A DNA stretch of 64,000 bases, from NCBI GenBank assembly GCA_014384545.1, contig JACNFQ010000089.1:5603-69602 (forward strand). The letters are read 5' to 3'. Positions 29,360 through 54,621 of the stretch are shown in pieces; position 1 is the stretch's first letter, and the number at the start of each line of letters is the position of its first letter. The position numbers were made by a program, and so were the translations under genes. The DNA comes from a bacterium (lineage in GTDB: Bacteria; UBP7; UBA6624). A model generated the notes under the pieces. The model did not search any database and was not told where the DNA came from. It saw only the letters and a program-made list of their open reading frames with translations.

Positions 29360-32254
29360 CTAGAGAATCGTCGCGCGGGCTAAGACGGCCCCCATATGTG
29401 CCTCGCTCTCAATAACTCCCGGGAGTTTGATTCTTTGACCAGGTCCCGTAAGAACGATGAGACACGCTCCTTGCCCCATTGCTGAAGGAACCTGCCCCAT
29501 CACTTCGCTACATTCCTTGGAACCTAGCGCTCTCAAGTCCACGATGGCATTTGAAAACCGATGGGTTACTGATTCTCCTAATGTCTTCCTTTGGGCTTTC
29601 CTCAGTTTTGCCAAGTACGATCTTACACCTGTCTCCTCTATCTCAATCCCCGACAACCCCTTGAGGTGAAGAGAGAGCCTTGTCATGGCTACTTGTAGTT
29701 TTCTGTGGTCAACCAATTTCCCCAAGTGCCTAAACCACCCCCTCAAGAAATCATCCACTTCTAGGGACTCCTCTCCTTCTACAATCCGCTTGATTCTCCT
29801 TTGATCAGAGACCAACCAAACCCACGGGAATAGAAACTCCCTGCCCTCTTTTCCTTTGACCGCCAAACCATCATCCGTTACGGCATAATCTGATGTTTCA
29901 AGTGTCGTTAGGAGTGTCTCAAGAACAGAAACAGCTGTCTCGCCAGAACCCGTCGGGAGAATCAGTGTGGGGGCGTCCCAAGAGATAGGTCTTTGAATCA
30001 ACCATTGGGTAAAGACCTCTGTATCCATCCTTGTTGCATCTTCGCGAGAGTAGTATTTCTCGTCCAAGATACGCTGGAAAGTCTTCCAAGTAAACTCTTT
30101 CTTCATCTGCCAAGAAAGTCCTCCCAAAGCACCCCCCATTCCTCCTTCTCCTAAGAGTAATTCAAGCTCTTGAAGATCTTGGGTTACATCTTGGTTGATT
30201 GCAATTTCTGGTTGGAAAGAGCCAAAGGCTTTGCGGAACCCCGAGTAGATTTCGGCCTCAATAAGTCCTTCTTCTCCTTGGGCAAGAATCTCCATCAAGT
30301 CGCAGGGGTCAGCCTCCTCCCACCCCGTGGAGAGGTTCAAGTCAGCGGTCTCAATGGGGCTCCACGAAAGAACCCTTTCAACGACCATTCCCCCCTTTTT
30401 CTTCGTAGCCACGCAGGCGGCGACTGATTTCCCCGTCTCGTTGAAACAACCAATCACATCTCCTTCGTTGACCTCCATCCCCGGGGGCAGTTTGAGCTTG
30501 TCACCTTCGGCAAGAGATGAGGGGGCGGTCCAAAACCATGCCCTCCTCGGTGTCCCCATCACGGGCGCAGAATAGACCGAAAGGCGTCGTCCCAGAGAGG
30601 TCCGTCCCTCGTGGAATCGCCAGCGACCCTCTCGCGCTTCAAAAGCGAATGTACTGACAAGGGCACTTGCCAGAGCTCTTCGACTTACCCGGCGAATGAA
30701 AAGGAATCTATGGAGGAGGTCCTCAAACCCCAACCCTTCTGGATAGGCACCCAAGATCTGTCCCGCCAAGTCTGTTATCTCTTCTGCAGGAGATTCTTGG
30801 AGGCGTTGGAGTTGTTCAATCTCGGCATCCTCAAGTTGGGGAACACGAATGGGGGTCAGCACTTCCAACCTAAATCGAGATACACTACGGTACTCCAGCG
30901 TCAGAACGGAACCCAATGCCGCAGACGCATTTATCCACGCAGCCAATCCATAGAGGACGGAATGGGCAAAATCTGCCAAGACAACGAGGCTCTCCCCTCC
31001 GGGTAACTCCACTTCAAATTCCGCCCAGTTTCCTGGAGGAACCAAAACCGCATTGAGGGCGGTTGCTAACGGGGGGGGAAGAGGGGTGACTTCATCGTTT
31101 AGGAAATCATTTAGAGTGATGATGAGAAGGGGCTCCACCCCAGGAAATCCATCTTCAGCAAAATCTCCGTCTAGCCAATAGAGAACTTCACTTTGGAGGT
31201 TGAGTAATAGATCCATCGTTAGACCTGCGTCTCCTACCAATAAGCCCTCATCCATCCCACGCTTCTTGCCACCACCCACAATTCCCTTGTCCGTAGGAAG
31301 ACCAGATGCCTTTCGCCAATAGGGGTTGTCTTCAGAAAAGCGAACTCTTACCAGCTCTCCCGCTCCTTCCTTGACCGACAGAACATCATCCACATCCCCA
31401 AGGTACGAGGGGCTGGCTTGGTTTCTACTGGGACCAAGAAGGTAAGAAAGGAGATTCTCTCTAGATACACTCTTTGTCGGTTCTTGTGCTTCAAAGAACT
31501 GATCAATCTTCTCGCCTACTTCTTTTCGAAGGCGCTTCTCCCTCTTGCTGATTACAGTAGGTTCCTCTTTCTTTTTTGTCGTCTTCTTTCCCCACCTTCC
31601 ACCCTCCATAGCAAATCGCTTATCAAGTTCGGGCTGGAAGAACGCTTGGAGATCCGTTCGGAGATGAGCCTTTTTCTCTGCTCTCTCAATAATATCTTTC
31701 TTCTTGATCGCACCCGCTTCTTGGACAATCTCCAAAGCGGGAGAGTTGACCAGTCTCCACCCCACTCGTCCCCACAACCTACCTCGACCCTGGACTTTCT
31801 TCGCGGGGATTTCGGTTTCTGTAGCAACGCGAAAACGCTTGTCTGCCAATAACCAGAGTTTCGTTTCTCTTACTTTTTTCCCCATACTCTTAGCCACAAT
31901 TGACCGAATCTTGGACTCAATCAAGAATCCTTGTTTCTCCTCCAAAACCCTCAAGGCTAGCTGGTGCGTGGGGAGATTCTCGGGTAAAAGTTGCCATCCA
32001 CCTTTCACTTTTTCCGCAAAGTTACATTTCTCTAAGAATGGGACGGCTCTCTCTCCCACAAATTGAGCCGGTGAAACACCCGTTCGTTTAGCCAAAGGGG
32101 CAAGAACATCTTCAAGGTCCTTTTCTGGAACGGGGCTAAGAATAACCGCCCCCTCCCTATCCTGAAAATGGGCATCTGGGTCGGGCTGAGTCTGCTCTGC
32201 CAATCGACCAATAATCAACTCACTCATTGAGAGTGCTGCATCTTGTTTAGCCAT
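29360..32254 (-). CDS. large uncharacterised cytoplasmic protein of about 965 aa. The start is assigned to the internal Met preceded by AAGGAGG.
   Basis: A single long ORF with coding-like composition and no TM or signal peptide. The only motif-like element is a degenerate P-loop-like LILPTGSGET. An RBS AAGGAGG lies 5 nt upstream of the ATG at 32254. Confidence 0.6.
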   Translation of the reverse strand: MAKQDAALSMSELIIGRLAEQTQPDPDAHFQDREGAVILSPVPEKDLEDVLAPLAKRTGVSPAQFVGERAVPFLEKCNFAEKVKGGWQLLPENLPTHQLALRVLEEKQGFLIESKIRSIVAKSMGKKVRETKLWLLADKRFRVATETEIPAKKVQGRGRLWGRVGWRLVNSPALEIVQEAGAIKKKDIIERAEKKAHLRTDLQAFFQPELDKRFAMEGGRWGKKTTKKKEEPTVISKREKRLRKEVGEKIDQFFEAQEPTKSVSRENLLSYLLGPSRNQASPSYLGDVDDVLSVKEGAGELVRVRFSEDNPYWRKASGLPTDKGIVGGGKKRGMDEGLLVGDAGLTMDLLLNLQSEVLYWLDGDFAEDGFPGVEPLLIITLNDFLNDEVTPLPPPLATALNAVLVPPGNWAEFEVELPGGESLVVLADFAHSVLYGLAAWINASAALGSVLTLEYRSVSRFRLEVLTPIRVPQLEDAEIEQLQRLQESPAEEITDLAGQILGAYPEGLGFEDLLHRFLFIRRVSRRALASALVSTFAFEAREGRWRFHEGRTSLGRRLSVYSAPVMGTPRRAWFWTAPSSLAEGDKLKLPPGMEVNEGDVIGCFNETGKSVAACVATKKKGGMVVERVLSWSPIETADLNLSTGWEEADPCDLMEILAQGEEGLIEAEIYSGFRKAFGSFQPEIAINQDVTQDLQELELLLGEGGMGGALGGLSWQMKKEFTWKTFQRILDEKYYSREDATRMDTEVFTQWLIQRPISWDAPTLILPTGSGETAVSVLETLLTTLETSDYAVTDDGLAVKGKEGREFLFPWVWLVSDQRRIKRIVEGEESLEVDDFLRGWFRHLGKLVDHRKLQVAMTRLSLHLKGLSGIEIEETGVRSYLAKLRKAQRKTLGESVTHRFSNAIVDLRALGSKECSEVMGQVPSAMGQGACLIVLTGPGQRIKLPGVIESEAHMGAVLARATIL

Positions 32255-33239
32255 TCCAACCTCCTTGGAGGGCTTTTCTTGTAGCCCGTTGAACTCTCTG
32301 ACTTGCCTCAAGGGATGTGGTGGGAATATCCGTTCCCGCCGCGATGATCTTCATCCCTTTGAGCGCCTTGACCTTTGGGGGAAGCCCCGAAACATAGAGA
32401 ACTCTTACCCCGTGTTGAATCGCCCGCTCTGCCAACCACCATGGTCCCTTACCCATCAAGCTCTGTTTGTCAACGATCCCTTCTCCTGTCACAAGCCAAT
32501 CTGTGTCCTCCCATTCATTGTCCAGCCCTATCTCTCGGGCGACAAATGGCGCCCCTTTCCATATCTTTCCGCCCAATACCCCCAATCCGAGGGGGAGTCC
32601 TCCAGCGGCCCCCATTCCCTCGATATCAGAGTGTGGGATCTCTTCTTGCAGGGGCAATAATGCTCTTGCAAGGTTGCCCATTCCGGCTTCCAGCCGGCGG
32701 ACAGCGGACGGGTTAGCACCTTTTTGGGGTCCGTAAACCGTCGCTGCTCCCTTTTCCCCAAGTAAGGGGTTGGCAACATCGGCGATTATATCAAATTGAA
32801 TGCCCCTTAGGGGATTTCCCCGAATGGGTGGAATCACCCGCCCTACTCTTTCCATCATTCCCCCTGATGGCTTGAGGGGTTTTCCATGGGAAGAGAGGAA
32901 CTGATAACCAAGTGCGTGGAGCATCCCCATTCCCCCGTCCACCGTCGCTGTTCCACCAATACAGAGCCAAATACGCTTTACCCCAGCTTCACCAATCGCT
33001 TCCAACAGTTTGCCCACTCCCCCAGAATGGAGCTTGAGGGGGTTTCTTTCCTTGATAGGTACATGGGTCAACCCCACCACAGTCGCAGTCTCGGCAATCC
33101 CGAGAGTTCCCTTTTCCGCTTGGCACCACCTTGCAGATACGGGATGACCCAAGGGGGTTTCGCAGAGAGCCTGCCTCCAAACCGCCTCCTTTGACTGGGC
33201 AAGGGCATCCATCGTTCCCTCTCCACCATCACCGAACAA
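32247..33239 (-). CDS. glycerate kinase (GK-I family). The conserved N-terminus continues upstream to about 33365 with no ATG, GTG or TTG start.
   Basis: DGGEGT, IWLCIGGTATVDGGMGM and the GAAGG-type C-terminal motifs. Manual translation upstream of 33239 gives VPKFLVALDSFKGTLTSKEAGEAA, the canonical kinase N-terminus. Confidence 0.8.
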   Translation of the reverse strand: MFGDGGEGTMDALAQSKEAVWRQALCETPLGHPVSARWCQAEKGTLGIAETATVVGLTHVPIKERNPLKLHSGGVGKLLEAIGEAGVKRIWLCIGGTATVDGGMGMLHALGYQFLSSHGKPLKPSGGMMERVGRVIPPIRGNPLRGIQFDIIADVANPLLGEKGAATVYGPQKGANPSAVRRLEAGMGNLARALLPLQEEIPHSDIEGMGAAGGLPLGLGVLGGKIWKGAPFVAREIGLDNEWEDTDWLVTGEGIVDKQSLMGKGPWWLAERAIQHGVRVLYVSGLPPKVKALKGMKIIAAGTDIPTTSLEASQRVQRATRKALQGGWNG

Positions 33240-33369: not shown

Positions 33370-34278
33370 CTAGAAAATCCGGATTATTTCGCCCGTTCGG
33401 GCATCAACGGGGAGGTGTATTCTTCCTCCGGGCTCTACAACGACATTCACATCCCATGCAGGGACAAGCTCTCTATCTTCTCCCCGCTTCCACGCCTCTT
33501 CAAGGGCGGACCAAGTGTAAACAAGACGAATACCCGTTACCTTGACCGTGGCATAGGGTTTCTCACCCAAGAGCTGTGTGTAAACGAACGAAACGACTTC
33601 TTGGGCTGCCGTGACTGCGGGAATCACTTGGGCGGGCTCTCCAAGGATGGAGGGCTCTGCTCCCCAGGACCAGTACATCTCAAAGACGCGGGGGCCCACG
33701 ACCGTGATTTGGATGTGGTCGGGGTGGAGTTGAACTCCATCGTGGCGTCGTCCATATTCAAAGAAATAGCCCAAAGGTAGCCCCAGTGCGTCCCGGCTAG
33801 ATTGCACATCTCCACCCTTGATTTCACCAGAGCGAATCATCGTGGCATCTGGGGGAAGACCCCCCTCAATCCCCCCAAGAAAAAGATCTCTTATCTCTTC
33901 GGCTTCCTTTCGAGTTACAGGTCTAATCACAGCACTTGAGTGGTAGGGATAACGATAGGCAAATCCCCCATGTGGATAGATCTCAACTTCTTGTTCGTAG
34001 GGGTTTCTGTATCGTTGCGAGCCCTGATCAATAACCCTGCTAAAGCCCATATAGGGTACGCGTTCTCTGGTAGATCCTAAGAGAGACTCCAATAGGTTCT
34101 CTTCTTCCACTGTGGAATAGTTGATGCTGAGGTTAGAGAGTGTGGGACGGTCAACAGGTACATGGACCCCAGGAATGACATTCAGCATAATGAAAATGTC
34201 ATCCGTAGAGAGTTCGTTGGTGGCTGACCCCATCGATGCCCCCAGAAAGGCAAACAGTGTTAAGACGTTTCTCTTCAT
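33370..34278 (-). CDS. secreted protein with a C-terminal PepSY-like domain
   Basis: Signal peptide. The C-terminal PAWDVNVVVEPGGRIHLPVDARTGEII matches the PepSY consensus. Confidence 0.45.
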   Translation of the reverse strand: MKRNVLTLFAFLGASMGSATNELSTDDIFIMLNVIPGVHVPVDRPTLSNLSINYSTVEEENLLESLLGSTRERVPYMGFSRVIDQGSQRYRNPYEQEVEIYPHGGFAYRYPYHSSAVIRPVTRKEAEEIRDLFLGGIEGGLPPDATMIRSGEIKGGDVQSSRDALGLPLGYFFEYGRRHDGVQLHPDHIQITVVGPRVFEMYWSWGAEPSILGEPAQVIPAVTAAQEVVSFVYTQLLGEKPYATVKVTGIRLVYTWSALEEAWKRGEDRELVPAWDVNVVVEPGGRIHLPVDARTGEIIRIF

Positions 34279-34485
34279 CTAGGGGAGTTTACCTTATTCA
34301 GCCCCACCATAGCGATAAAGGGAAAGGGAACAATCTGGCGTCCTCCTCCAATCCGTTATTAGGCGGGGGGCTGTGGCTCTCCGTTAGCCCGAGGGTTGTG
34401 GATCTCCGAGCCACCATTTCGGGTGCTCCGGCGCAGAGCCAGACGCAAGCGTCCTTCTCTGGCCCCCGTCCCTCATGTCCACGCC

Positions 34486-34601
34486 CCCGTTGCCCTCCCT
34501 TCGGGGTGAGAGGATTGCGTGCTTCGCACAGGACTCCACCCCTGCGGTCGGTCCCGTGGACGCTACGCGCCCCCGCTGCCCTCCCTTCGGGGTGAGAGGA
34601 T
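34486..34601. repeat. direct repeat (34486-34516 and 34571-34601, period 85 bp) of the tRNA-Pro 3' end (last ~15 nt) plus 16 nt of 3' flank
   Basis: cccgYtgccctcccttcggggtgagaggatt is present twice. This resembles an att-like tRNA 3'-end duplication. Confidence 0.7.
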
Positions 34602-34660
34602 TCGAACCTCCGACCTCCGCATCCCGAATGCGGCGCTCTGACCAGGCTGAGCCACACCCC
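34586..34660 (-). tRNA. tRNA-Pro (anticodon CGG)
   Basis: Manual fold gives a 7-bp acceptor stem (CGGGGTG/CACCCCG), D-arm GCTC/GAGC, anticodon stem CCGCA/TGCGG with loop TTCGGGA, T-arm GGAGG-TTCGAAT-CCTCT, and discriminator A. No encoded CCA. Confidence 0.8.
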
Positions 34661-34870
34661 GTGGCAAGGGGTGATTCTAAAAGTAGCCGCATTCGGGGTG
34701 GAACATCCCGGACCACGGCGTAGCCGGGGTTAGCCACGCACTGCGAAGCAGGGTGTGGCAATCAGGCGCTCTGACCAGGCTCTGCCACACCCCGTGACAA
34801 GGGGTGATTCTAAAAGTAGCCGCATTCGGGGTGGAACATCCCGGACCACGGCGTAGCCGGGGTTAGCCAC
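34631..34870. repeat. two tandem copies (34631-34736 and 34765-34870) of a 106-bp unit. Each covers the 5' ~30 nt of tRNA-Pro plus about 76 bp of its upstream region.
   Basis: Direct sequence comparison shows 3-5 mismatches. The copy-2 tRNA fragment has CTC changed to CAG in the D-arm. The junction (34737-34764) can pair with 34784-34793 as a 10-bp hairpin. Confidence 0.75.
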
Positions 34871-35082: not shown

Positions 35083-36015
35083 TTGAGGTTAAGTACTCAA
35101 CCTCTACCACCACGGCCTCCCAAGAAGACTTCGTTGCCAGTGAAACGGTCGTTGTGGCGGGAGCACTTGTCCTCTACAAAGAAACCTAGTCCCCGCTTTG
35201 TTCAAGAGGGTCCTTCTTTTTGGGAGGGTTTACACCAAGAAGCAAAAGGTTACTTTTCTTCTTTTGGTCGCTCACAATCATTAGGTCAGAACTTCCTCGT
35301 TGACCCCTTTGCCCTCCACGCCATCTCTCTATTGATTGAGGCTCGTCCCTCTCCTTGGACTGTAGAGGTAGGGGCTGGACTGGGGTTTTTAACACGCGGT
35401 CTCTCCCACAGACCTCACCTCACCCTCTTTGAGCTGGATCTCTCTCTATTGTCACGCCTGTCGTCCCACTTTCCAAACGCTTCCCTTTTGGGTGACTTTA
35501 GGGATTGGGACGCATCAAGTGCCCCCCCAAACGGACTCCTCGTGGGAAATATTCCCTACTCTCTTTCGGGTTCCGTTCTCTCTCTGTTGGCTCGGTACCC
35601 ATCACGCTTTATCGGTAGCATTCTTACGCTTCAGCGAGAGGTCGCCCAGCGCGTGGCGGCACCGATACATACGAAGCGCCGAGGTCTTTTATCTGGTCCT
35701 CTCCAAGCGATCTACAACGTGGAAGTCGCCCGACGACTGCCCCCTGGTGTGTTTGCACCACCTCCTCGTGTTCACTCCGCTGTTTTGGTTCTAGATAGGA
35801 ACGAAATCTTTCCAGATGACAAATGGGCCCATAATCACCTTGCTCTGATGAAACTCGCTTTCTCACAGCGGCGGAAAAAGGTGGCAAACCTCTTGTCTCA
35901 TGTGCTTCCGGAAAAGTGCCTCAACGAGATTCCTGATGGAGCGCGTGCCGAAGATCTTCCCACATCCCTGTCCCTCCACCTCTCCTCTTTTTTTCAGCCC
36001 AAGAAAACGTCTTAG
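35083..36015 (+). CDS. ksgA: 16S rRNA (adenine1518/1519-N6)-dimethyltransferase. The N-terminal extent is uncertain.
   Basis: SLGQNFLVD, VEVGAGLGFLT and LVGNIPY motifs of KsgA/RsmA. Confidence 0.85.
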   Translation: MRLSTQPLPPRPPKKTSLPVKRSLWREHLSSTKKPSPRFVQEGPSFWEGLHQEAKGYFSSFGRSQSLGQNFLVDPFALHAISLLIEARPSPWTVEVGAGLGFLTRGLSHRPHLTLFELDLSLLSRLSSHFPNASLLGDFRDWDASSAPPNGLLVGNIPYSLSGSVLSLLARYPSRFIGSILTLQREVAQRVAAPIHTKRRGLLSGPLQAIYNVEVARRLPPGVFAPPPRVHSAVLVLDRNEIFPDDKWAHNHLALMKLAFSQRRKKVANLLSHVLPEKCLNEIPDGARAEDLPTSLSLHLSSFFQPKKTS

Positions 36016-36824
36016 TCGTTTAGCCCTAAAGCATCCTCTGAAAGGTCTCGCAAAGTCGCCAAATCAAAAACGGGGCCTCTGGTCCAAATGTTGACACCAG
36101 CCAAGAGGTCTTGGTTGCTCCACCCCAAACCCGTGGTCCAGTTCCTGTTGACGAGGAAATAGATATCCTTGTCGCGAAGTCTTGACTTTTCTAAGATGCC
36201 CATTAGAACCTTTTGGAAGGGCCTCGTTCCTCCAACGGCTGCTCCTACCATGCCCTGGAGAATCTTCTTCTTCATAATCTGATCTCTGAGAAAGGTCTCC
36301 CAAGGTTGATTCCCCCTGTCTTTACTCGCAATCAGGTGGACTTGGATGGGAGAACTTTCCTCTGAAGCTTTCTCCAGCGCTTTCGCCAAGACCGGGTTCT
36401 CCTTATCCGTTGTCAGATGAGTGATAACGACCTCTTTTCCCTGTGCCAATAGAGCATTTACCAGCCCGCGTTGGGCGGCTAGCCCCATATCCATGGAGAA
36501 GAGCCCTATCTTTCCCTCGGGCCATCCCTCTGTCGGAAGACCATTCCCATACGGTCCCCTTAGCCCTAAAGCCTGTCCCTCAGAAAGAAGGAATAGGCGA
36601 TGTGTAACGCTATCCACGTCTTGGAGAGAAACCCCAAAACAGTCTTTGCTAACCTCCGAAACGACCCCTGTCGTTTCCCCCCGCCCAAAAACTGATATCT
36701 TGAAACCTTGTCCGGGAGTGATTGGTGAAAACCCCTCTCTTGAAAAGAAGAGGGTCAGCACACCTCCCCCTTCCTCTTGTATCGACTCAATCGAATGGAT
36801 GTGAGGAATAAGGGGATCTGTCAT
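36012..36824 (-). CDS. AsrB/PyrK/sulfhydrogenase-gamma-like FAD/NAD(P) oxidoreductase-fold protein lacking the C-terminal [2Fe-2S] cysteines and with a degenerate NAD-binding motif
   Basis: FNR-like beta-barrel plus Rossmann pattern (RLFLLSEGQALGLRGPYG). No Cys cluster at the C-terminus. Its start overlaps the stop of the upstream gene. Confidence 0.5.
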   Translation of the reverse strand: MTDPLIPHIHSIESIQEEGGGVLTLFFSREGFSPITPGQGFKISVFGRGETTGVVSEVSKDCFGVSLQDVDSVTHRLFLLSEGQALGLRGPYGNGLPTEGWPEGKIGLFSMDMGLAAQRGLVNALLAQGKEVVITHLTTDKENPVLAKALEKASEESSPIQVHLIASKDRGNQPWETFLRDQIMKKKILQGMVGAAVGGTRPFQKVLMGILEKSRLRDKDIYFLVNRNWTTGLGWSNQDLLAGVNIWTRGPVFDLATLRDLSEDALGLND

Positions 36825-37840
36825 CCGAAATCTACACCTTGAATGATCTTCCTGACATCATGTTTTGTGGGCATCGCCGCCACACATCTATGTGCACCTG
36901 AACAACCCAGAAATCCATGTCTCTTGGGGAAGTAAAGGAACATCTCCAGAAGCCAGTCTCTTATCCTCTCCTTCATCCCGGGTCGATAGTCGTCCCCATC
37001 GGGTAGTCGAGAGTATCCTGGGGCATGAGGGTGCGTCCAAACTCTGTACCGTGTTCCTTGGTGACCTTTGGGGACATCTATAAATCGAAATTGGGTTCCC
37101 GAGTAGAAATACCGACTGATCGCTGCACTGGGAATCATCCCCAAGTAGACCTCGTCCCAGTAAGGTAATGCCAAAATCTCGGCATCCGAAAACTCTTCCC
37201 ACCGCTCCAGTTCTAGAGATTGATCGGTAGATCCCCGTACCCCCGCCTTTGCTTTTCGGGCATCTTCGCGATGGTCGGATTCTGCGGGATTGAACTGGTC
37301 AGTAATCAAGGCCATCCCCCGCTCGGTCAATACTTGGACATAGTAGGTTCTACCTAAATCGGTAAGGAGCATATCTACCCCCTCTTCAGGGAAAAGATCC
37401 ACCCCGACCGACTCAGCAAAGCAACACGGTGGCGGGTTGTGGTAACCCACACAGATTATGGCACTATTCTCTCTCCTAGCCTTGTACCGTTCATCGGTCA
37501 CATCCCCCATCCAATACGCATCCATAATCTCCAACCCTCTTACATCGGGTGGTCGCATGCCAAAAATAACCCTAGGAGTCGTGTCGGGCGGTTTGGGTGT
37601 AATCTCGACTTTGTCTGGAAGAATATCATAGGAGAAGATCTCTTCGCGAGGAGGAAAGAAAATCGCCTTAGGAGATTCCTTCGTATTCGTATACTCGGTA
37701 ATCACTTCTTCGCCCAGAGGGTTCCGGGTAAAGTGCAAGCTACCCTCCTTACCCGTGGGTGCCCAAACCTCTTGGCTCAATCTAAGATCGTCCAACCAGT
37801 AGCGAAGTTTCGCTTTCGCAAAGATGAAATCCGCAATCAC
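36821..37840 (-). CDS. AsrA/HydB(FlxB)-like protein with degenerate [4Fe-4S] motifs
   Basis: Alignable to AsrA blocks ([24 protein letters not shown] vs [32 protein letters not shown] vs FENCFCVSMG). The terminal CxxCxxCxxxCP is replaced by [12 protein letters not shown]. Confidence 0.5.
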   Translation of the reverse strand: [339 protein letters not shown]

Positions 37841-38727
37841 TGTTCTATCTTCCTTGAGAGTGTTAGAGGATTGTCTCCACGGTCTCCTGGACGGTAATCA
37901 AAAATGCGTCGGAAATGGCGTGACGACCAAGCTCGGATTGCTGAAACAGGTACTTTTCCTCTTTCTGTACCCAAATCAGAAAGGTCAAAACCAGACAGCC
38001 TTCCCAATCCCTGGTAGACCCAACATAGGTGCTGAAAAAAGAGATCTTCGGGACTGTAGTCACCTCGAACAAGCCCCGTCTCGGTCAGGTGGTCCCCCCC
38101 ACCATAAGTAGACGGGAAATGAGAAATAGTCTCATTTACTGGTGATGCTGAGCCAAACATCTCTAACCAATGTGCTCGTCTTTGTGGGTGGGTCATGTGG
38201 GAGAGTCTCTCTAGGTTTGTTCTTCCTAGGTCAGGTTTTTCCTTGTTCTCAAGATCAAACATCCACCGGGGTTCAACCAATAGGTCACATTCTTCGGGTT
38301 TTTCAAAAAGATCGTGCCAACTCCACTCCCAAAGAGCTTCTGGGCAATCAGGGAAGGTTATCTGATTCTCGTTACTCCTTGAAACCAAAACACGGTTGGG
38401 GTCTAGATACCCTGTAAACCGGACGCCAATAATGTGGAGGTTTTCTCTTTTAACGAGCCCATCCTTGACCAACTCCTTGATTGAACGCACCACGGCAGGG
38501 GTAGCAACAATTCCTACTTTTCCCTGAATCCCAGGAAGGTATGTAGCTAGGTTTAAGGTGGAGAAACAGTTAAAGACGAGGGATTGAACATCGTCGGGGC
38601 GGAATGCAAAACAGGGAGCCGTCGTGCCCGGGTATGGACCCACTTGATACCCAATAACGACACTCACGTAGTCTCGTTTTAGGAGACGTCTTGCCTCCCT
38701 CTGAATACTGATTCTTAGTTCGTTCAT
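37837..38727 (-). CDS. FrhB-family-like (coenzyme F420 hydrogenase/dehydrogenase beta-like) protein with Cys substitutions
   Basis: KVGIVATPAVVRSIKEL..LHIIGVRFTG parallels FrhB KLGTVAIPCQTMGIRKM..LLVGIYCMENF. The conserved Cys positions are Ala/Val here. Confidence 0.4.
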   Translation of the reverse strand: MNELRISIQREARRLLKRDYVSVVIGYQVGPYPGTTAPCFAFRPDDVQSLVFNCFSTLNLATYLPGIQGKVGIVATPAVVRSIKELVKDGLVKRENLHIIGVRFTGYLDPNRVLVSRSNENQITFPDCPEALWEWSWHDLFEKPEECDLLVEPRWMFDLENKEKPDLGRTNLERLSHMTHPQRRAHWLEMFGSASPVNETISHFPSTYGGGDHLTETGLVRGDYSPEDLFFQHLCWVYQGLGRLSGFDLSDLGTERGKVPVSAIRAWSSRHFRRIFDYRPGDRGDNPLTLSRKIEQ

Positions 38728-41072
38728 TCGTTAAAACCTAACGGTCCTAGCGCCTGAATACCCTTGCTGAACTCCTGGAGGGTTTCTCGGAGTTCTCTAA
38801 TCTGATGAGGCCCCATAAACGCTACCTTTATTCTGTTGGGTTCGATACCTGCTCCATCCATTACGCCCTCTAAGGCACGAAATCGTCTCATAGCCAAGTA
38901 GTTATCTTGGTGGAACCTACCTTCACCGAGGGGTCCTGCTAAGATGAGAACCCCATCAGCACCTCCCAAGAGTGTCTTGAGAACGAGGAGGGGGTCTAGA
39001 TGTGCCGAGGATCGAACACGTAAGAATCGATACGATGAACTGTATCCTTGTCTCTCCCTCCCCAACATCTCCAGAAGTGGATACCCGCCAAACTGCGTAG
39101 CAAAACCTGTAATCCGAGGTTTCCAGATCGTTCCCAATCCATCACTCCAAAGTGACTCTATTTCTGCAAGAGCCTTACCCATCTCCCACCCCCTTAGCTC
39201 CACATTTCTGGTGGGGCTAGCAGGAACGGATGCCCCACTCTCTGTTCCCCCCTCTCCAGCAACCCGAATGCGTTGAGACAATGTGCCCTCATTTGTCACT
39301 TCAAATTGCTCTGGAGAAACACGAGCACAATCTCGGTCATATCGACTCTCTTCTCTCGACCTAAGAATCAGTTTGTGTGGACTCCCTTTTTTTTTTCCTA
39401 AAACCCCAAGTGCTTTGGCCGCTGCCGCTTCAGCAGAAATCACTGCAGTTCGGATATCCCCGGGAGACGTGCAGTCTCCCGCCACGAAGACACCATCATT
39501 GTTCGTTGCGCAAGGATCCAATGCAGGGTGGGTTTCCTTCAAAAACCCACTCTTGTCAACCCCAACCTGAACAAGTTCTGACAACATCGCTGTTTCATCG
39601 TGAGGTACAGCCTCCGTCACTAAAACCACACCATTCGCCCTAAGGCGACGTTCGCCACCCTGCAAAATATCATGAACGACCACAACGGAACCTCCCGCCT
39701 GTGGTGAAACCTGAGAAGAGGCACCTCGAATCAGTTCCACTCCATATTCTTCAACAGCGGTCCTAAGAAACTCCCTATACCCTCTTGTGTGAGCTCGAAG
39801 ATCTTTGTAAACGACCGTACATGAACAATCGGGGTGATTCTTCTTGACCATAATCGCTTGCTTTGCTGCAATCATGAGGGGTATCTCGGTCGCATAGGGT
39901 ACCCCCTTTTGGGGATCATCACTACCAACATCTGTTAGCCAAACAAGAGACTGAGGAGCCTTCCCCCCCAAGAGTATCTCACCTTGAGTTGGTCCACCCG
40001 AAGAGAGAATTCTTTCAAATCCTTCCGCCGAAAAACTCCCCTCCGCACTCGGGTTTAGGTGCTGTAACGAAGAAGGGTCAAATCTCTTTGATCCCACAGC
40101 AAGAATGATCGCTCCCACCCTTTCGTGTACAACCTTCTCTTTTTCGTTGGGGTCAATCGCTCCCTCTTCTAAAAGGGATGTTGCCCCAGAGAGGGCACCT
40201 TTGATGTGGTCGGGGTCTACCAGAGGGTCGTCTGGTACCGCACCGGGAAAGGGGAGATAGAGAGCCGCCCTCATGGAAAGCCCCTCTTGATAACTATCTG
40301 GGATATTCTTAGGCAACGCCTCCATCGCTTTTTCCAACCCCTCCAACTTGTTCTTGTCAACGAATCTTGGTTTCTTATGAATATCCACTTCGTAGTTGCC
40401 CGGAACTCCCGATATCGAGCCCACTTCACTATAAGCATAAACCTCAATGTTTTCACTTTGGTGGCATTCCAACATCAACTGTCGCGCCAACCCTTGGGCT
40501 TCATCCAGTCGTGGCCACAGTCGATCTAACTGAACCAATCTACCCCCCAAAGAGGGTGCCCTCTCAACTAAGACCACCCCATACCCCCCTTTGGCTAGGC
40601 GAAGTGCTGCTGTCATCCCAGCGACCCCACCACCCACCACCAAAACCTGCTGTTCCACCCGAATGTGCTCACTCTCTATAGGTTTGCCTTGCTGTGTTCT
40701 CTTTACAGCTGTGCGCAAGAGTTGGAACGCTTTTTCTGTCGCTTCATCCTTATCTTCATGGACGAAGGCAACCATCTCTTTTAGGTTAACGACTTCCACA
40801 AGGTGCGGGTTGATTCCTTTACTTTCTAGTGCCGCCTTGATCGTTGCCTCTCCCCTCTCTAACGACCCCCCACCCACAACGACATACGCAAGAGCTTCTT
40901 CTTGGGCAACACGCCCCATTTCCTCTAGCCCCGCTACCGTATTGATGTCGTCATGTAGGTGAACATGGTCCACTTCTTGGAGTTCGTCCTCTAGCCGGTG
41001 AGCAATCCCTTCTAAGTCCAAGACTTCAAGGTCTCCCCCTTCTCTACTAATAAACACACCTATTTTGCTCAT
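38724..41072 (-). CDS. HdrA-like FAD flavoprotein flanked by N- and C-terminal MvhD-like domains, all lacking Fe-S cysteine ligands
   Basis: FAD fold VLVVGGGVAGMTAALRLAKGG..GGRLVQLDRLWP and NIEVYAYSEV match HdrA. The HdrA CxxCxxCxxxCP block is replaced by KLEGLEKAMEALP and DCS(I/M)C is lost. In the C-terminal MvhD-like domain, RVRSSAHLDP replaces RVPCSGRVDP and AGPLGEGRF replaces GCHPGDCHY. Confidence 0.7.
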   Translation of the reverse strand: MSKIGVFISREGGDLEVLDLEGIAHRLEDELQEVDHVHLHDDINTVAGLEEMGRVAQEEALAYVVVGGGSLERGEATIKAALESKGINPHLVEVVNLKEMVAFVHEDKDEATEKAFQLLRTAVKRTQQGKPIESEHIRVEQQVLVVGGGVAGMTAALRLAKGGYGVVLVERAPSLGGRLVQLDRLWPRLDEAQGLARQLMLECHQSENIEVYAYSEVGSISGVPGNYEVDIHKKPRFVDKNKLEGLEKAMEALPKNIPDSYQEGLSMRAALYLPFPGAVPDDPLVDPDHIKGALSGATSLLEEGAIDPNEKEKVVHERVGAIILAVGSKRFDPSSLQHLNPSAEGSFSAEGFERILSSGGPTQGEILLGGKAPQSLVWLTDVGSDDPQKGVPYATEIPLMIAAKQAIMVKKNHPDCSCTVVYKDLRAHTRGYREFLRTAVEEYGVELIRGASSQVSPQAGGSVVVVHDILQGGERRLRANGVVLVTEAVPHDETAMLSELVQVGVDKSGFLKETHPALDPCATNNDGVFVAGDCTSPGDIRTAVISAEAAAAKALGVLGKKKGSPHKLILRSREESRYDRDCARVSPEQFEVTNEGTLSQRIRVAGEGGTESGASVPASPTRNVELRGWEMGKALAEIESLWSDGLGTIWKPRITGFATQFGGYPLLEMLGRERQGYSSSYRFLRVRSSAHLDPLLVLKTLLGGADGVLILAGPLGEGRFHQDNYLAMRRFRALEGVMDGAGIEPNRIKVAFMGPHQIRELRETLQEFSKGIQALGPLGFNE

Positions 41073-41755
41073 GCTGTTACCCCTCGGTGAATAGATTGAA
41101 CCACTTTGTAAGAAATCCCCAACAGAAGGAGGATTGGGCCCGCCAAGAGAACTTGGCTAACCACATCCGGTGGTGTCAGGAGTGCTGCCATAACAAATGT
41201 CAATACAATCAAGTGCCCCGCCTTCTGTTTAAAAAAGAGTGGCGTAAGTAAGCCGATTCTAGCCAATAGCCCACAAATGACGGGCAACTCAAACGCCAAA
41301 GCCGCCCCCCCGACAATGCCTTGGACAAAACCCAACCACGCTGAGAATGTCCAAACAGGCTCCAAACCATGCGATAATCCGAACCGAAAGAGAAATCCTG
41401 AGGAGACTGGAAGAAGAACAGACCACCCAAACCAAGAACCTAATACCAACATCAGAATTGCGGGCAAAAAGACCCATTTGAGTCCTGCCACCTCTTTCTC
41501 CTTTAGCCCTGGGCGAACAAAGAGGACGATTTCTCGGACCCAAACCGGAAGAGAAAGGAGGGCACCCCCCGTCAGGGCAAGTCTCACCACAGATAGGAAT
41601 GCTTCTTGGGGTGAGAGAATGTGTAAAGAGACCTCAAACTTCTCTATGGGTATCTTGAGGGCGTCCAGTAGCACCCCTGCTTTCCACCCCACAAGAAGGG
41701 TCGCAACGAGCCAAGCAAGGAGCGACCGAATTAGCCCACCCCTCAAATCCCCCAA
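41069..41755 (-). CDS. tatC: twin-arginine translocase subunit TatC
   Basis: Six-TM protein with the conserved TPPD motif (ALLTPPDVVSQ) and a TatC-like N-terminus. Its stop overlaps the HdrA-like start (ATGA). Confidence 0.8.
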   Translation of the reverse strand: MGDLRGGLIRSLLAWLVATLLVGWKAGVLLDALKIPIEKFEVSLHILSPQEAFLSVVRLALTGGALLSLPVWVREIVLFVRPGLKEKEVAGLKWVFLPAILMLVLGSWFGWSVLLPVSSGFLFRFGLSHGLEPVWTFSAWLGFVQGIVGGAALAFELPVICGLLARIGLLTPLFFKQKAGHLIVLTFVMAALLTPPDVVSQVLLAGPILLLLGISYKVVQSIHRGVTA

Positions 41756-41793
41756 GTGCTCAACGAGTGGTCTGGGTTGGTCCTCTTTGGAGG

Positions 41794-42015
41794 TCAGGGC
41801 AAAGGTGGTTCTTCTTCTTCTACTACAGAACCGTCCTCAACGCTCTTCTTGATCTCCTTTTCCCCCTCTTTCAGCCCCCCTTTGAACTCCCCCACAGATG
41901 CCCCAATAGATCGGGCAAACTCCTTTATCTTTCCTGGACCAAAGAAGATGAGCGCCACAACCGCAATCACCACAATCTCTGTTGTTCCGAACCCTACACC
42001 CAATAGAAATGGCAT
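41794..42015 (-). CDS. tatA: twin-arginine translocase subunit TatA/E
   Basis: TM helix followed by amphipathic helix (GTTEIVVIAVVALIFFGPGKIKEFARSIG) and an acidic tail. Confidence 0.8.
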   Translation of the reverse strand: MPFLLGVGFGTTEIVVIAVVALIFFGPGKIKEFARSIGASVGEFKGGLKEGEKEIKKSVEDGSVVEEEEPPLP

Positions 42016-42044
42016 TCTTGTTCCTCCTACCCTCTTATCCTAAT

Positions 42045-43421
42045 CTAGATATGTAGTGCCCCCATATCTGTAGCCGCTAGGGCTGCTTCCTTGAGCGATT
42101 CAGATAATGTGGGGTGGGCATGAACGAGGATGCCCATATCTTCGGCATCACCCCGAAAGCCCATTGCCATTACAGCCTCTCCAATAAGTTCAGAGGCGTG
42201 TGGGGCTAAGAGATGAACGCCAAGAATCTCTCCCCCCTCTCTTGCGGCAACGACCTTTGTCATCCCCTCCGTCTCTCCCAGAGCTGTTGCTCGCCCCGAG
42301 GCGACGAGTGGAAAAACCCCCACACGGGTCTCTATTCCCTTGTCATTTGCCTCCTTCTCTGTCATCCCCACAGCCGCGAACTCGGGGTCGGTATAGACGA
42401 CTGTCGGTATGTGGTCATATTCCATTCTTGCCCTCTTGCCAGAAATCGTCTCGGCTGCAACAACACCCTCTTCGCTCGCTTTGTGGGCCAACATCGGACC
42501 AGGAACAAGATCTCCTATGGCATAGATTCCCTTTGTGGTCGTTTCCATCTCTTCGTTCACAAGAACAAACCCACGACCATCCGTTTCTACACCAAGAGCC
42601 GCTAGGTCAATCCCTCCATTCGAAGGCTTCCTCCCCACTGCAACTAGGACATAGTCCACTTCAACAACCCCCTCCTCTTCTCCACTTCTCCAACTTAGTT
42701 CTGCCCCTTTTTCTCCCACTTTGACCCCTGTCGCCCCCGTCCCTGTCCTTATCTGCATTCCCCCTTTTAGCAGTCTCTTTCTAAGGGCTCTTGCTAATTC
42801 CTTGTCCATTGTAGGGAGTATTTCATCCTCCCACTCAAAAAGGGTCACTTTCGTTCCTGCTCTATGATAAACAGAACCCAACTCCAACCCGATTGCCCCT
42901 CCGCCAATCACAGCAAGTCTTTGGGGCACTTCTTTCAGTTCAAGAGCAACCGTAGAGTCAATCACCCTCTTGTTACCGAAGGGAACTGCGGGCAATGCCA
43001 TGGGTGTGGATCCTGTAGCCAAGACGATTGTCCGGGTTGAAAGTCTCTCTTCTCCCACAACGACCGAACCCGGCGCTGGAATCGTTGCTGTTCCTCTAAT
43101 GACAACGACTCCCGCTTTTTTCAAGAGATGCCCCACACCACCAGATAACTTGGCAACGACCTTCGCCCGTCTCTTTTGTAATATGGTCCAATCTAGAGAA
43201 AGTCCTTTAGAGATGATTCCGTGTTTTCCGCCCTCCATTGCCCTCTGAAAAATCTCCGTAGTATCAAGAAGAGTCTTGCTGGGGATACAACCGGTATTCA
43301 AACAGACCCCACCCAGTTTCTCTCTTTCCACGAGGGCTGTCTTAAGCCCCAACTGTGCCGCCCGCAGAGCGGAGACATACCCCCCCGGACCGCCCCCCAC
43401 AATCGTGATGTCGTACGTCAA
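42045..43421 (-). CDS. lpd: dihydrolipoyl dehydrogenase (E3)
   Basis: GGGPGGY, redox-active disulfide GVCLNTGCIPSK, and the C-terminal HAHPTLSE. Confidence 0.9.
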   Translation of the reverse strand: MTYDITIVGGGPGGYVSALRAAQLGLKTALVEREKLGGVCLNTGCIPSKTLLDTTEIFQRAMEGGKHGIISKGLSLDWTILQKRRAKVVAKLSGGVGHLLKKAGVVVIRGTATIPAPGSVVVGEERLSTRTIVLATGSTPMALPAVPFGNKRVIDSTVALELKEVPQRLAVIGGGAIGLELGSVYHRAGTKVTLFEWEDEILPTMDKELARALRKRLLKGGMQIRTGTGATGVKVGEKGAELSWRSGEEEGVVEVDYVLVAVGRKPSNGGIDLAALGVETDGRGFVLVNEEMETTTKGIYAIGDLVPGPMLAHKASEEGVVAAETISGKRARMEYDHIPTVVYTDPEFAAVGMTEKEANDKGIETRVGVFPLVASGRATALGETEGMTKVVAAREGGEILGVHLLAPHASELIGEAVMAMGFRGDAEDMGILVHAHPTLSESLKEAALAATDMGALHI

Positions 43422-44662
43422 CGCAATGGCCCCGTGGCTAGGAATCCGGGTTGCTCCAAAATCTCCTTGACCCTAATAAGAAAGTTCACAGCTCTAACAC
43501 CATCCACAATGCGGTGGTCACTGGCAAGGGAAAGGTAGACCATCGGCCTCGCCTCTATCCTGCCCCCTACAACAACGGCTCTCTCTTTGATGGTATGTAT
43601 GCCTAGGATGGCGACTTGGGGTTGGTTGATAATGGGGCTGGAAAAGAGAGGACCTCCAAACATCCCCGCATTCGTAATCGTGAATGTTCCCCCTGTAATC
43701 TCATCTAGGGTTAGTTTCCCCTCTCGCGCTCTATGAGACAGTCTGTTTATCTCTTGGGATAATCCCAATAGGTCATAGTGATCTGCATCCTTAACGACAG
43801 GAACGATTAGGTCTCCCCCCACACTCGCTGCCATCCCAATATCTCTCCCACCATGGAAAACGATTTCATCCCCCTCCACCGATGCGTTGAGACGCGGAAA
43901 CTCTTGTAGCGCTTTTGCAGCTGCTCGGACAAAAAAGGGCATCAATGTCAATCGAATGCCTTCTTTTTCGTTCTTCTTCTTCAGTCTATTGTAGATAGCG
44001 AGCGTTCCACTGATATCCGCTTCGTCCACGATGTGGAAATGGGGACTTGTAGCTACCGATGAAACCATATGTTTCGCCATCGCTTTGACGGGGTTGGTCA
44101 TCTTTTCTCGGTAGGTCTCATTGGGTCGCTCCGTTTCGCCACCTCCAACGCTTTTTTCTACATCGGATAACATCACTCGACCCTTCGAACCGCTACCCCT
44201 TATCAAGCGAATCTCTACCCCCATTTCTGTAGCTCTCTTGCGGGCAGCAGGGCTTGAAAGAACCCGTCCTCCTTTTGTTGGGGCACTTGGGTCTCTTCCT
44301 TTCCTTTCTCTTTTCTTCGTGGTTGGTCTCGCTTTCTCCTTCTTACCTTCGCCTTCTTCTTTTGGGGGGTCTTCTTCCTCTTTGCCTGCCCAAACTTGAG
44401 CTTCTTTTTGGGTCAGTCGCTCTCCCTTGAGTGAAATAACCCCAATCGTAGAGCCGACCTTGACGACATCCCCCTCAATAGCAAAAAGTGCTGCAATCTC
44501 TCCCGCTTTGAAGGCAGTAAGCTCCTGTGTAATCTTGTCTGTTTCCAACTCGCCAATAGGCTCATCTCTTGTGACGGTATCTCCGACGCCTTTTTTCCAT
44601 TTTCCAACGGTCGCCTCCACGACAGATTCTCCCAGTTCAGGTACGAGGATTTGGATGGGCAT
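43418..44662 (-). CDS. dihydrolipoamide acyltransferase (E2) of a 2-oxoacid dehydrogenase complex
   Basis: Lipoyl domain (ELETDKITQEL), E3-binding domain, catalytic DHRIVDG. Confidence 0.9.
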   Translation of the reverse strand: MPIQILVPELGESVVEATVGKWKKGVGDTVTRDEPIGELETDKITQELTAFKAGEIAALFAIEGDVVKVGSTIGVISLKGERLTQKEAQVWAGKEEEDPPKEEGEGKKEKARPTTKKRERKGRDPSAPTKGGRVLSSPAARKRATEMGVEIRLIRGSGSKGRVMLSDVEKSVGGGETERPNETYREKMTNPVKAMAKHMVSSVATSPHFHIVDEADISGTLAIYNRLKKKNEKEGIRLTLMPFFVRAAAKALQEFPRLNASVEGDEIVFHGGRDIGMAASVGGDLIVPVVKDADHYDLLGLSQEINRLSHRAREGKLTLDEITGGTFTITNAGMFGGPLFSSPIINQPQVAILGIHTIKERAVVVGGRIEARPMVYLSLASDHRIVDGVRAVNFLIRVKEILEQPGFLATGPLR

Positions 44663-45720
44663 TAGTCGTTTTCCATAGCCCCTTTTGCCGCCTTTAGTAT
44701 CGTCTCAACACTGGGAAGATACGCTTTTTCCATCGCAGGATCAAAGGGGTATGGTGTATCCGGCGCAGAGATCATTCGGATAGGGGAAAGTAAATTCCAG
44801 AATGCACCCTCTTGCACGCGGGCTGCTATCTCGCTAGAAAACCCATATGAAGAGTGACTCTCACTAATAACGACACATCTTCCCGTCTTACAAACCGAGT
44901 TCACAATCGTATCCAAATCAAGGGGCCAAAGGGTTCTTGGGTCTATCACCTCAACCGAAACTCCCTCTTTTTGGAGTATTCTCGTTGCCTCCATCGCTCG
45001 AATGAGCATATTTCCATAGGCGACAAAGGTGATGTCTGAACCCGATTGGTGAATGCGTGCTTTCCCGATTGGAACCATGAAATCAGGGTCTGTAGGTGCT
45101 TCTCCCTTTACGGATCGGTAAAGTTTCTTATGTTCTATAAAGAGGACGGGGTCGTCACACCGAATCGCCGTTCTAAGTAGTCCAGCAGCATCCTCCACTG
45201 TGCTGGGGGTCATCACAATGAGTCCTGCCGCATGACAGAACCAAGCCTCGTTGCTTTGGCTATGGGTAATGCCTCCACCAATATCCCCGCCAAACGGTGT
45301 CCGTATCGTCAGCGGACAACACCAAGAACCATTCGTTTTGAACGACATCACACCTGCTTGGTTGACGATATGCCCCATGGCACAATCGATAAAATCCATG
45401 AACTGGATTTCGGCAATGGGTCTATACCCCGCTATCGCAGAGCCAATTGCTCCCCCAATGATAGCGTTTTCTGCCAAGGGTGCGTCCAAGACACGCAAGG
45501 GACCAAACCGATCGTACATCTTCTCAGATTGGTCAGGTGAGCCATCCTCTTGACTTTTCCAGGCTGTTGCTTTGAAGACTCCACCATAACGACCACAGTC
45601 CTGCCCCAAGACAAAGACTTTTTCGTCCCTCTCCATCTCCGACCACATTGTGTCGGTAATCGCTTGGATAAGGGTCATTTCAGCCATCTCTTTTCTCCCA
45701 CTCTCTCCGTACCACCTCAT
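44662..45720 (-). CDS. 2-oxoacid dehydrogenase E1 component beta subunit
   Basis: Transketolase-like Pyr and C-terminal domains. Typical E1-beta N-terminus. Confidence 0.9.
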   Translation of the reverse strand: MRWYGESGRKEMAEMTLIQAITDTMWSEMERDEKVFVLGQDCGRYGGVFKATAWKSQEDGSPDQSEKMYDRFGPLRVLDAPLAENAIIGGAIGSAIAGYRPIAEIQFMDFIDCAMGHIVNQAGVMSFKTNGSWCCPLTIRTPFGGDIGGGITHSQSNEAWFCHAAGLIVMTPSTVEDAAGLLRTAIRCDDPVLFIEHKKLYRSVKGEAPTDPDFMVPIGKARIHQSGSDITFVAYGNMLIRAMEATRILQKEGVSVEVIDPRTLWPLDLDTIVNSVCKTGRCVVISESHSSYGFSSEIAARVQEGAFWNLLSPIRMISAPDTPYPFDPAMEKAYLPSVETILKAAKGAMEND

Positions 45721-49523: not shown

Positions 49524-49527
49524 GGTA

Positions 49528-50376: not shown

Positions 50377-50472
50377 AAAGGGGATGATACCTTCACCGTT
50401 GGGAGGTTTGGCGAGGTTTTCATTTTTTGATTCGTTCCCTTCTTTTCTTTTCGTCCCGTAGGATTCTCCGAT

Positions 50473-51819: not shown

Positions 51820-51865
51820 AATCTCTTATGTTAACTTATTATCCTTATCGGAGTCACTTCTTTTC

Positions 51866-53002: not shown

Positions 53003-53040
53003 GAAAAGGGGGCAAAGAGGCAAGAAGCCTCCTTGAAGGG

Positions 53041-54605: not shown

Positions 54606-54621
54606 AATAACCGGAGGAAAC

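Follow-up and report, generated by a model that had tools for sequence, protein, structure and literature searches.

The 64,000-nucleotide (nt) stretch analyzed here (the window; contig JACNFQ010000089.1 of the bacterial assembly GCA_014384545.1, positions 5,603 to 69,602) carries on its minus strand, between positions 36012 and 42015, six open reading frames (ORFs) arranged head to tail: tatA, tatC, and four genes designated A, X, B, and G. Gene A (38724-41072; 782 amino acids, aa) encodes an HdrA2-type fusion of HdrA with a C-terminal MvhD domain, X (37837-38727; 296 aa) an FrhB/FdhB-like protein, B (36821-37840; 339 aa) a HydB/AsrA/FlxB-like protein, and G (36012-36824; 270 aa) a HydG/AsrB/PyrK/FlxA-like protein. 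Complexes of the HdrA/Flx type are textbook iron-sulfur (Fe-S) machines that perform flavin-based electron bifurcation in anaerobes. Profile, fold, and column-by-column comparisons, which in the case of X run through its relatives, support the view that the four proteins descend from an Fe-S module of the Hdr/Flx/sulfhydrogenase type and have lost its cluster ligands while still aligning with their families. The same had been proposed in an earlier, sequence-only reading of the locus, and the degenerate motifs quoted there were all found exactly as given.

Residues 17 to 561 of A match HdrA in the Mvh-Hdr structure from M. thermolithotrophicus (PDB 5odc_A, E = 4e-91), and the C terminus matches MvhD of the same structure (5odc_D, 1e-15); residues 654 to 776 score 80.2 bits on the Pfam family FlpD (PF02662; gathering threshold 22.3 bits, E = 1.7e-22). 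The NCBIfam HdrA2 model covers the protein end to end (residues 3 to 779 against model positions 1 to 775 of 777, E = 3e-134), with a score of 449 bits, under the curated cut-off of 1100. No Fer4 Pfam match was found in A. In the AlphaFold2 model (predicted local distance difference test, pLDDT, 78) all domains are placed, and the flavin adenine dinucleotide (FAD) core superposes on HdrA 8rvu_a with a TMt of 0.93 and a root mean square deviation of 2.2 Å. The chain takes the order of an HdrA N-terminal domain (residues 1 to 132; 40677-41072, minus strand, as are all segments of A), a thioredoxin-reductase-like FAD core (residues 140 to 560; 39393-40655) with an inserted ferredoxin-like relic (residues 236 to 312), a relic of the C-terminal 2x[4Fe-4S] ferredoxin domain (residues 566 to 630; 39183-39377), and an MvhD/FlpD domain that lacks the [2Fe-2S] ligands (residues 653 to 782; 38727-39116). 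MvhD-like domains had been claimed for both ends of A. At the C terminus the FlpD match bears this out, and at the N terminus the two domains align co-linearly with weak scores (hhalign E = 0.017, probability 2.7%). According to the paper on the HdrA crystal structure, the N-terminal domain of HdrA is structurally akin to MvhD.

Ligand loss was tabulated by aligning six members of the clade with the operon of "bacterium JZ-2024 1" (L008) and with a canonical relative (L012; GCA_022712815.1), and every column holding a Cys was listed. In the N-terminal domain of A, the four cluster Cys are replaced by S9, E11, N44, and G69, and the six of the FAD-proximal cluster by E191, G194, D381, A394, P398, and L399. 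The nine Cys of the inserted ferredoxin domain read L, L, A, L and I, L, A, L, A. The eight columns of the C-terminal ferredoxin domain, all of which hold Cys in JZ-2024 and L012, are now S576, D579, C/A582, S586, G/K609, S612, S/P615, and S619; the five of MvhD, likewise Cys in the L012 and JZ-2024 columns, are T659, G662, S688, G713, and G718. The canonical HdrA ligand columns are thus non-Cys in all six clade members, with the single exception of position 582, which is Cys in two of them.

The flavin site of A is a different matter. Its GxGxxG motif (EQQVLVVGGGVAGMTAALRL) is intact, as had been claimed for the Rossmann motif of the HdrA-like protein, and is invariant across the clade together with E170, the GD motif, E353, and K404. 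The last two residues correspond to E356 and K409 of HdrA, which are key flavin-site residues linked to bifurcation (PMC12054007). Three Cys are also invariant in A: C203 and C521 are clade-specific, and C534, beside the GD motif, occurs universally in HdrA. The invariant fraction within the clade is 51% in the MvhD domain and 48% in the first FAD subdomain, and it is lowest, at 18%, in the inserted ferredoxin-like relic.

X gave no direct match in Pfam or NCBIfam. It is homologous to a JZ-2024 protein (P0126; E = 2.5e-37, 95% coverage), and its relatives of about 315 aa all carry 4Fe-4S dicluster domains and matches to FrhB_FdhB_C/PF04432, one of them being annotated as a formate dehydrogenase subunit beta. 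Among PDB profiles, FdhB (9t1s_M) aligns co-linearly with X at E = 0.19. By its location between mvhD and the HydB-like gene, X is FlxC-like. Both CxxCxxCxxxCP motifs (eight positions) and the N-terminal Cys are replaced, with Phe residues (F204 and F247) standing invariantly at the "CP" Cys. In a phmmer search of X against 1.84 billion representatives, the Cys-less clade formed one cluster at 50% identity, and the next relatives, at 32 to 39% identity, all have Fe-S motifs. A separate arrangement was seen on a JGI contig (3300041958, L011; 178-5703), where a GltD/NfnB-like flavoprotein, an HdrA-MvhD fusion (702 aa, with Fer4), an X relative, and a methionine sulfoxide reductase (PMSR) follow one another; this locus has no tatC, B, or G.

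B matches HydB of Pyrococcus furiosus sulfhydrogenase I both by sequence (9nez_B, 7e-19) and by fold (Foldseek 5.6e-20, TM 0.67). It passes the Pfam threshold for Fer4_22 (33.2 against 27 bits) and scores 80 bits on the NCBIfam equivalog, the cut-off of which is 750. Nine of the twelve canonical ligand Cys, which would serve three [4Fe-4S] clusters, are lost, and C140, C313, and C319 remain. All four Cys of ferredoxin motif 1 are gone. In the relic of motif 2, the invariant "GCSGAHRC" (C313, H317, and C319; 36884-36907, minus strand), Cys I and Cys III are kept as C313 and C319, Cys II and Cys IV have become Ala and Met, and H317 is new and invariant. The equally invariant pair C139-C140 (PPCCFAE; 37421-37426, minus strand) comprises a relic of the third, CxC/CxC cluster of the HydB type (C140) and a new Cys (C139). 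The set of C139, C140, C313, H317, and C319 is present in every Cys-less locus, and the pLDDT of the AlphaFold2 model falls below 50 at these Cys/His loops. The description of the module as stripped of Cys therefore holds for the columns of HdrA, MvhD, X, and G, and has to be amended for B, which retains these five residues.

G is recognized by the profiles of PyrK (2e-15), AsrB (1e-14), and HydG (1e-6), and its NCBIfam scores of 57 and 54 bits lie under the cut-offs of 224 and 289. The PyrK-type [2Fe-2S] motif, CxxxxCxxC...C, now reads T/S231, S236, D239, and W247. In the nucleotide loop, SMDMGLAA stands in place of GGGxGxxP, and the flavin motif is shorter by 2 aa. The absence of a C-terminal Cys cluster and the degenerate nucleotide site noted earlier for this AsrB-like protein are both evident in these columns, and judging from the motifs, binding of NAD(P)H (reduced nicotinamide adenine dinucleotide or its phosphate) or FAD by G is unlikely.

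The canonical relative L012 is arranged as hdrC-hdrB-hdrA-mvhD-X-B-G, and the module in the window corresponds to the hdrA(+mvhD)-X-B-G part of this order. Because L012 has this gene order, the closest template is a module of the Flx-Hdr type, i.e., FlxABCD-HdrA(BC) with hdrCBA-mvhD-X-B-G. The Cys counts of A(+D), X, B, and G are 34+6, 20, 18, and 7 (85 in total) in the canonical module and 6, 5, 5, and 1 in the window, and the Cys content of the module, about 1.0%, compares with a background of 0.97% in the window. Genome-wide avoidance of Cys was considered and rejected on the grounds of this background and because LipA (CX4CX5C and CX3CX2C) and an aconitase-family protein retain their ligand Cys, as had been stated for LipA and LeuC. 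The HdrB and HdrC partners gave no match when the L012 sequences were searched with phmmer against six-frame translations of the 64-kb window and of the related loci L001 to L007.

An operon with partial loss of Fe-S ligands was found in JZ-2024 (L008-L010; GCA_054402795.1/GCA_054402895.1), which is also the source of P0126. It runs (L008, 5078-12797) from a split transketolase through tatC, hdrA (655 aa), mvhD, X, and B to G. On Pfam content, the split transketolase was considered as a candidate orthologue of the E1 alpha and E1 beta genes of the window. Its X and B have two CxxCxxCxxxCP motifs each, and its G has the PyrK-type [2Fe-2S] motif. Its HdrA, with only 16 Cys, still has its C-terminal ferredoxin domain and, in the inserted domain, one cluster. 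On the other hand, HdrA has already lost its N-terminal and FAD-proximal clusters and B its third cluster, and in G degeneration has reached the nucleotide loop (AQNSG). In terms of ligand columns, the loci form a graded series from the canonical module through the half-stripped JZ-2024 operon, with about half of the clusters, to the stripped clade of the window.

The stripped block recurs. The identical A protein occurs on eight contigs from NCBI, ENA, and Logan assemblies, and about 14 independent loci, 49 to 67% identical, carry the A-X-B-G block; they comprise the window, L001 to L007, and L013 to L018. L001 and L002 are 58 to 67% identical to the block in the window, L005 to L007 are three GTDB species genomes, and L013 to L018 are six further metagenome contigs. 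The records are all marine or unclassified, and 3 of 185,579 species genomes hold the block. A search of related genomes for the same Cys-less operon with tatAC had been suggested; the operon was found, and tatC precedes the block wherever enough upstream sequence is available. No stop codon interrupts the block at any locus. For the close pair L004 and L005 (synonymous divergence, dS, 0.6 to 0.8), the ratio of nonsynonymous to synonymous divergence (dN/dS) is 0.020 in A, 0.014 in X, 0.011 in B, and 0.068 in G, compared with 0.054 in tatC. All four genes are under strong purifying selection within a narrow lineage. The residues that replaced Cys are themselves invariant, for example, S9, E11, N44, and G69 of A, F204 and F247 of X, and S236, D239, and W247 of G. 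Pseudogene decay and assembly or sequencing error, which would be favored by nothing beyond the ligand loss itself, are rejected and have next to no chance of being correct: the ORFs are intact in all loci with dN/dS values of 0.01 to 0.07, the same A protein appears in several independent assemblies, and the substitutions are different sense codons conserved throughout the clade. The restoration of the missing Cys by correction of frameshifts or sequence errors, which had been named as a refutation, is ruled out by the eight contigs and the intact loci.

Upstream of A lie the two tat genes, also on the minus strand. tatA (41794-42015; 73 aa) matches Pfam TatA_B_E (E = 4e-14; 52 bits against a gathering threshold of 21) and TIGR01411 (54.6 bits against a cut-off of 53.9), and tatC matches Pfam TatC (E = 3e-43; 148.5 bits against a gathering threshold of 25.1). 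The mechanical tatC ORF starts at TTG 41755 (41069-41755, 228 aa). Its frame is open further upstream and encodes "PLVEHLGDLR", which resembles the N termini of TatC in relatives ("SLSEH..DLQ" and "TFWEHLEELR"). No ATG, GTG, or TTG able to start this conserved "PLVEH" N terminus was found in the upstream frame. Since the conserved N terminus lies upstream of TTG 41755 and no canonical start is available there, CTG 41797 is plausible, although unproven, and is the probable true start of tatC, which then spans 41069-41797 and encodes 242 aa. The tatC of L001 seems to be likewise truncated if a canonical start is demanded.

Overlaps of 4 nt join tatC to A (41069-72), A to X (38724-27), X to B (37837-40), and B to G (36821-24). 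All six genes had been said to overlap in this way. Four of the junctions do so, and the fifth, between tatA and tatC, does so only if tatC starts at CTG 41797 (CTGA, including the tatA stop); otherwise, a gap of 38 nt separates the two genes. The 4-nt overlap is the commonest type of junction in the window, accounting for 13 of 43 same-strand junctions (30%). These overlaps reflect tight packing rather than a special link, and they were rejected as evidence of special coupling on the basis of this count.

In the Cys-less clade, as in the Fe-S-bearing operon of JZ-2024, the ORFs of tatC and hdrA overlap, whereas the genes upstream of tatC differ, being those for 2-oxoacid dehydrogenase E1-E2-E3, lipoylation, and tatA in the former and a split transketolase in the latter. 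Between the Cys-less clade and JZ-2024, TatC is 35% identical, A 33%, X 33%, and B 38%. Since TatC and A, X, and B have diverged to a similar degree, the block seems to have been co-inherited. The linkage, being present in the Fe-S-bearing operon as well, is older than the loss of Cys. No twin-arginine signal was found on A, X, B, or G in any clade member. A candidate signal on X ("EARRLLK") was rejected because the motif is kept in cytoplasmic Fe-S relatives and no hydrophobic stretch follows it. Other relatives of the module, L011 and L012, have no tatC. The functional coupling to the Tat (twin-arginine translocation) machinery suggested by the sequence-only reading is not upheld, given that the linkage predates the Cys loss, that the twin-arginine signal is missing, and that 4-nt overlaps are common. 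In the simplest reading, the adjacency of tatA-tatC is an inherited gene order in a long operon-like array beside the replication origin (oriC) and not evidence of Tat cargo or coupling.

This array consists of 14 co-directional genes (36012-50508, minus strand), with tatA and tatC inside it, and starts beside dnaA, which is divergent. Upstream of the module it holds the genes for E3 (Lpd), E2, E1 beta, E1 alpha, LipA, a LipB/LplA-like protein, the aconitase-family protein, and 3-hydroxyacyl-CoA dehydrogenase (42045-50508, minus strand), in an order that is identical in L001 and L004. A promoter and terminator scan of 35500-51000 was uninformative: promoter-like sites numbered 6 where 10.7 were expected, terminator-like sites numbered 25 where 17.3 were expected, and none of them falls on a gene boundary in a way that would divide the array.

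Several other features of the window were observed. The genes dnaA (50473-51819, plus strand) and gyrB (54622-56691, plus strand) flank a minimum of the cumulative GC skew at about 52 kb, where the GC skew changes sign, and the region of about 50473-56691 is likely the replication origin region; the array that contains the module runs away from this presumed origin on the leading strand. An ORF of 983 aa (29360-32311, minus strand) and one of 447 aa (53262-54605, plus strand) had no Pfam match at E ≤ 1e-8. The latter lies between dnaA and gyrB and on this account may be a divergent dnaN. A tRNA-Pro (CGG) gene at 34587-34661 (minus strand) is the sole Rfam/ARAGORN match in the window, and the ORFs of 80 to 125 aa at 34236-34761 that overlap it are probably spurious. 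Between 10896 and 28742 lie genes for a heparinase II/III-like protein (10896-12599), urocanase (14311-16050), an M32 carboxypeptidase (17251-18759), and an amino acid permease-Usp fusion (26331-28742), a content that suggests a heterotroph using amino acids and peptides.

The module is best read as a vertically inherited descendant of one of the FlxABCD-HdrA type. As to its function, we consider the chances about even that A-X-B-G acts through the FAD of A as an enzyme of flavin-only, two-electron chemistry, in which X, B, and G are partners without a redox role. The four proteins would be cytoplasmic and would form a complex built as in the ancestor. The flavin site is intact, and no Fe-S path is left that could give two one-electron outputs; without Fe-S wires between the subunits, there would therefore be no electron bifurcation and no single-electron relay. 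The FAD of A would instead react directly with a soluble partner in flavin-only two-electron chemistry, in which C203, C521, and C534 of A may take part, and X, B, and G would act as structural or substrate-binding partners. The earlier proposal of a flavin-only or non-redox descendant of a bifurcating complex stands insofar as descent from an Fe-S module with loss of ligands is concerned. The term flavin-only, on the other hand, would apply to A alone, because in G the motifs for NAD and flavin have degenerated, and B possibly has a residual metal or thiol site.

Several points weigh against this flavin-only reading. FAD binding by A is predicted from motifs only, and the assembly of A-X-B-G as in the ancestral complex is likewise a prediction. 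In the subclade L003 to L007, a 13-aa deletion (in columns equivalent to residues 355 to 372 of A in the window) removes the HdrA loop "SGPTGG" that follows the E356 equivalent; the loop is retained in the window and in L001, and its deletion beside E353 may have altered the flavin environment of the subclade. The invariant Cys/His set of B could bind a metal. The tatC-hdrA junction outlasted a change of upstream genes and is more persistent than random synteny predicts. Above all, X and B, which are without a recognizable cofactor site, are the most constrained subunits by dN/dS and fit a purely passive role poorly. The strong constraint on these two cofactor-less proteins is the main fact that none of the readings explains well.

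That constraint, together with the missing cofactor motifs of X, B, and G and the invariance of the residues that replace Cys in X, G, and A, speaks for a purely non-redox pseudoenzyme, i.e., a scaffold or regulator in which any FAD in A would have only a structural part and selection would maintain a new role in binding or structure. FhcB and a Molybdop clade without cofactor Cys offer precedents by analogy (PMC12054007). A structural flavin would not obviously need the dinucleotide signature and the equivalents of E356 and K409, all of which are invariant in A, and we regard such a scaffold as unlikely, though worth weighing. It is improbable that a metal center persists through noncanonical ligands, with a candidate cluster or a Zn or Fe site formed in B by C139/C140, C313, H317, and C319 and electron transfer partly kept. 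No Cys-less locus departs from these five residues, three of the four Cys go back to canonical ligands, and H317 lies beside the lost Cys II; however, the relic Cys derive from two different canonical clusters, X, A, MvhD, and G keep no partner cluster with which electrons could be exchanged, and the loops are modeled with low pLDDT.

It is also quite improbable that the module works with the Tat translocase as a cytoplasmic docking, proofreading, or cofactor-sensing partner of TatC. The tatC-hdrA overlap common to the Cys-less clade and JZ-2024 despite differing upstream genes, and the like degree of divergence of TatC and the module, would agree with such a partnership. None of the subunits carries a twin-arginine signal, however, the relatives L011 and L012 do without tatC, tight gene packing is normal in this genome, and full-text searches gave no paper that links hdrA functionally with tatC. 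We know of no Tat component or chaperone that is related to Hdr or Flx proteins. A bolder form, in which A-X-B-G has been put to a new use outside electron transfer that ties it physically to Tat, for example, as a docking or quality-control partner of TatC in the cytoplasm, seems to us very improbable; if true, it would explain both the survival of the tatC-hdrA junction from the Fe-S ancestor and the high constraint on X and B.

Whichever reading applies, a whole multidomain architecture has been kept under strong selection after some 14 clusters were discarded, which amounts to a natural experiment on what Hdr/Flx folds are capable of without Fe-S. The three-step series also offers material for studying how a redox enzyme becomes a flavin-only enzyme or a pseudoenzyme. 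A link may exist between the loss of clusters and a life in oxic sea water poor in iron. Public annotations label A as "hydrogenase iron-sulfur subunit" (P0001, 38724-41072) and B as "4Fe-4S dicluster domain-containing protein" (P0281, 36821-37840). Because such labels imply Fe-S clusters whose ligands are absent, they are misleading, and metabolic reconstructions from metagenome-assembled genomes would wrongly infer Hdr- or hydrogenase-linked anaerobic metabolism from them.

Full-text searches turned up no account of an HdrA or Flx module without its Cys, in agreement with the earlier statement that such an Fe-S-free module had not been described. Compared with the closest known systems, with which its proteins share fold and order, the module appears as an Fe-S-free descendant of the Flx/Hdr module, in which every canonical ligand set is missing and no curated equivalog cut-off is reached. 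In the Fhc complex, FhcB is a cofactor-less homologue of FwdB that lost its ligand Cys and was kept as a noncatalytic part (PMC12054007). This is an analogy only, between unrelated families, and the other Fhc subunits retain a known catalytic function, unlike those of the window module. The HdrA of the sHdr system of sulfur oxidizers (Hyphomicrobium denitrificans, PDB 6tjr) resembles A in having an HdrA-type FAD core with fewer clusters (Foldseek E = 6e-25, TMt 0.91), and the setting of both is non-methanogenic and probably aerobic. sHdrA still binds one [4Fe-4S] cluster. It belongs to the minimal "A0" class of HdrA (PMC12054007). Whereas this minimal protein of 340 aa works with HdrB and HdrC, A of the window retains its accessory domains as Cys-less relics, and HdrBC are missing.

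The likeness to the beta and gamma subunits (HydB and HydG) of P. furiosus sulfhydrogenase I (PDB 9nez/9nf0), AsrA and AsrB, and PyrK lies in the sequence and fold of B and the profiles of G. Catalytic subunits of a hydrogenase or a sulfite reductase are not part of the window module. Nine of the 12 ligand Cys of HydB are gone from B, the [2Fe-2S] motif and the GGGxGxxP loop of HydG are gone from G, and the NCBIfam cut-offs are missed widely. HdrA2 of Methanosarcina acetivorans, an HdrA-MvhD fusion that forms HdrA2B2C2, contains one FAD, four [4Fe-4S] clusters, and one [2Fe-2S] cluster (PMC5296606). A of the window has the same domain order and matches the HdrA2 model of NCBIfam from end to end; unlike HdrA2, it scores 449 bits where 1100 are required, retains no surviving ligand set, and has no HdrB2C2 partner nearby. 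FlxABCD-HdrABC, a flavin oxidoreductase/heterodisulfide reductase, combines an HdrA flavoprotein, an MvhD/FlxD-type domain, two subunits of the Fe-S type (X and B in the window), and a HydG/PyrK-type subunit (G in the window). The system is known from anaerobes such as Desulfovibrio vulgaris (Ramos et al. 2015, as cited in PMC5296606). The window module differs from it in that HdrB and HdrC are not nearby, MvhD is fused to HdrA, tatC is adjacent, all cluster ligands save the three relic Cys of B have been lost, and the FlxA-like protein has degenerate motifs for NAD(P) and flavin; through the canonical relative L012, it matches this system in both subunit set and gene order.

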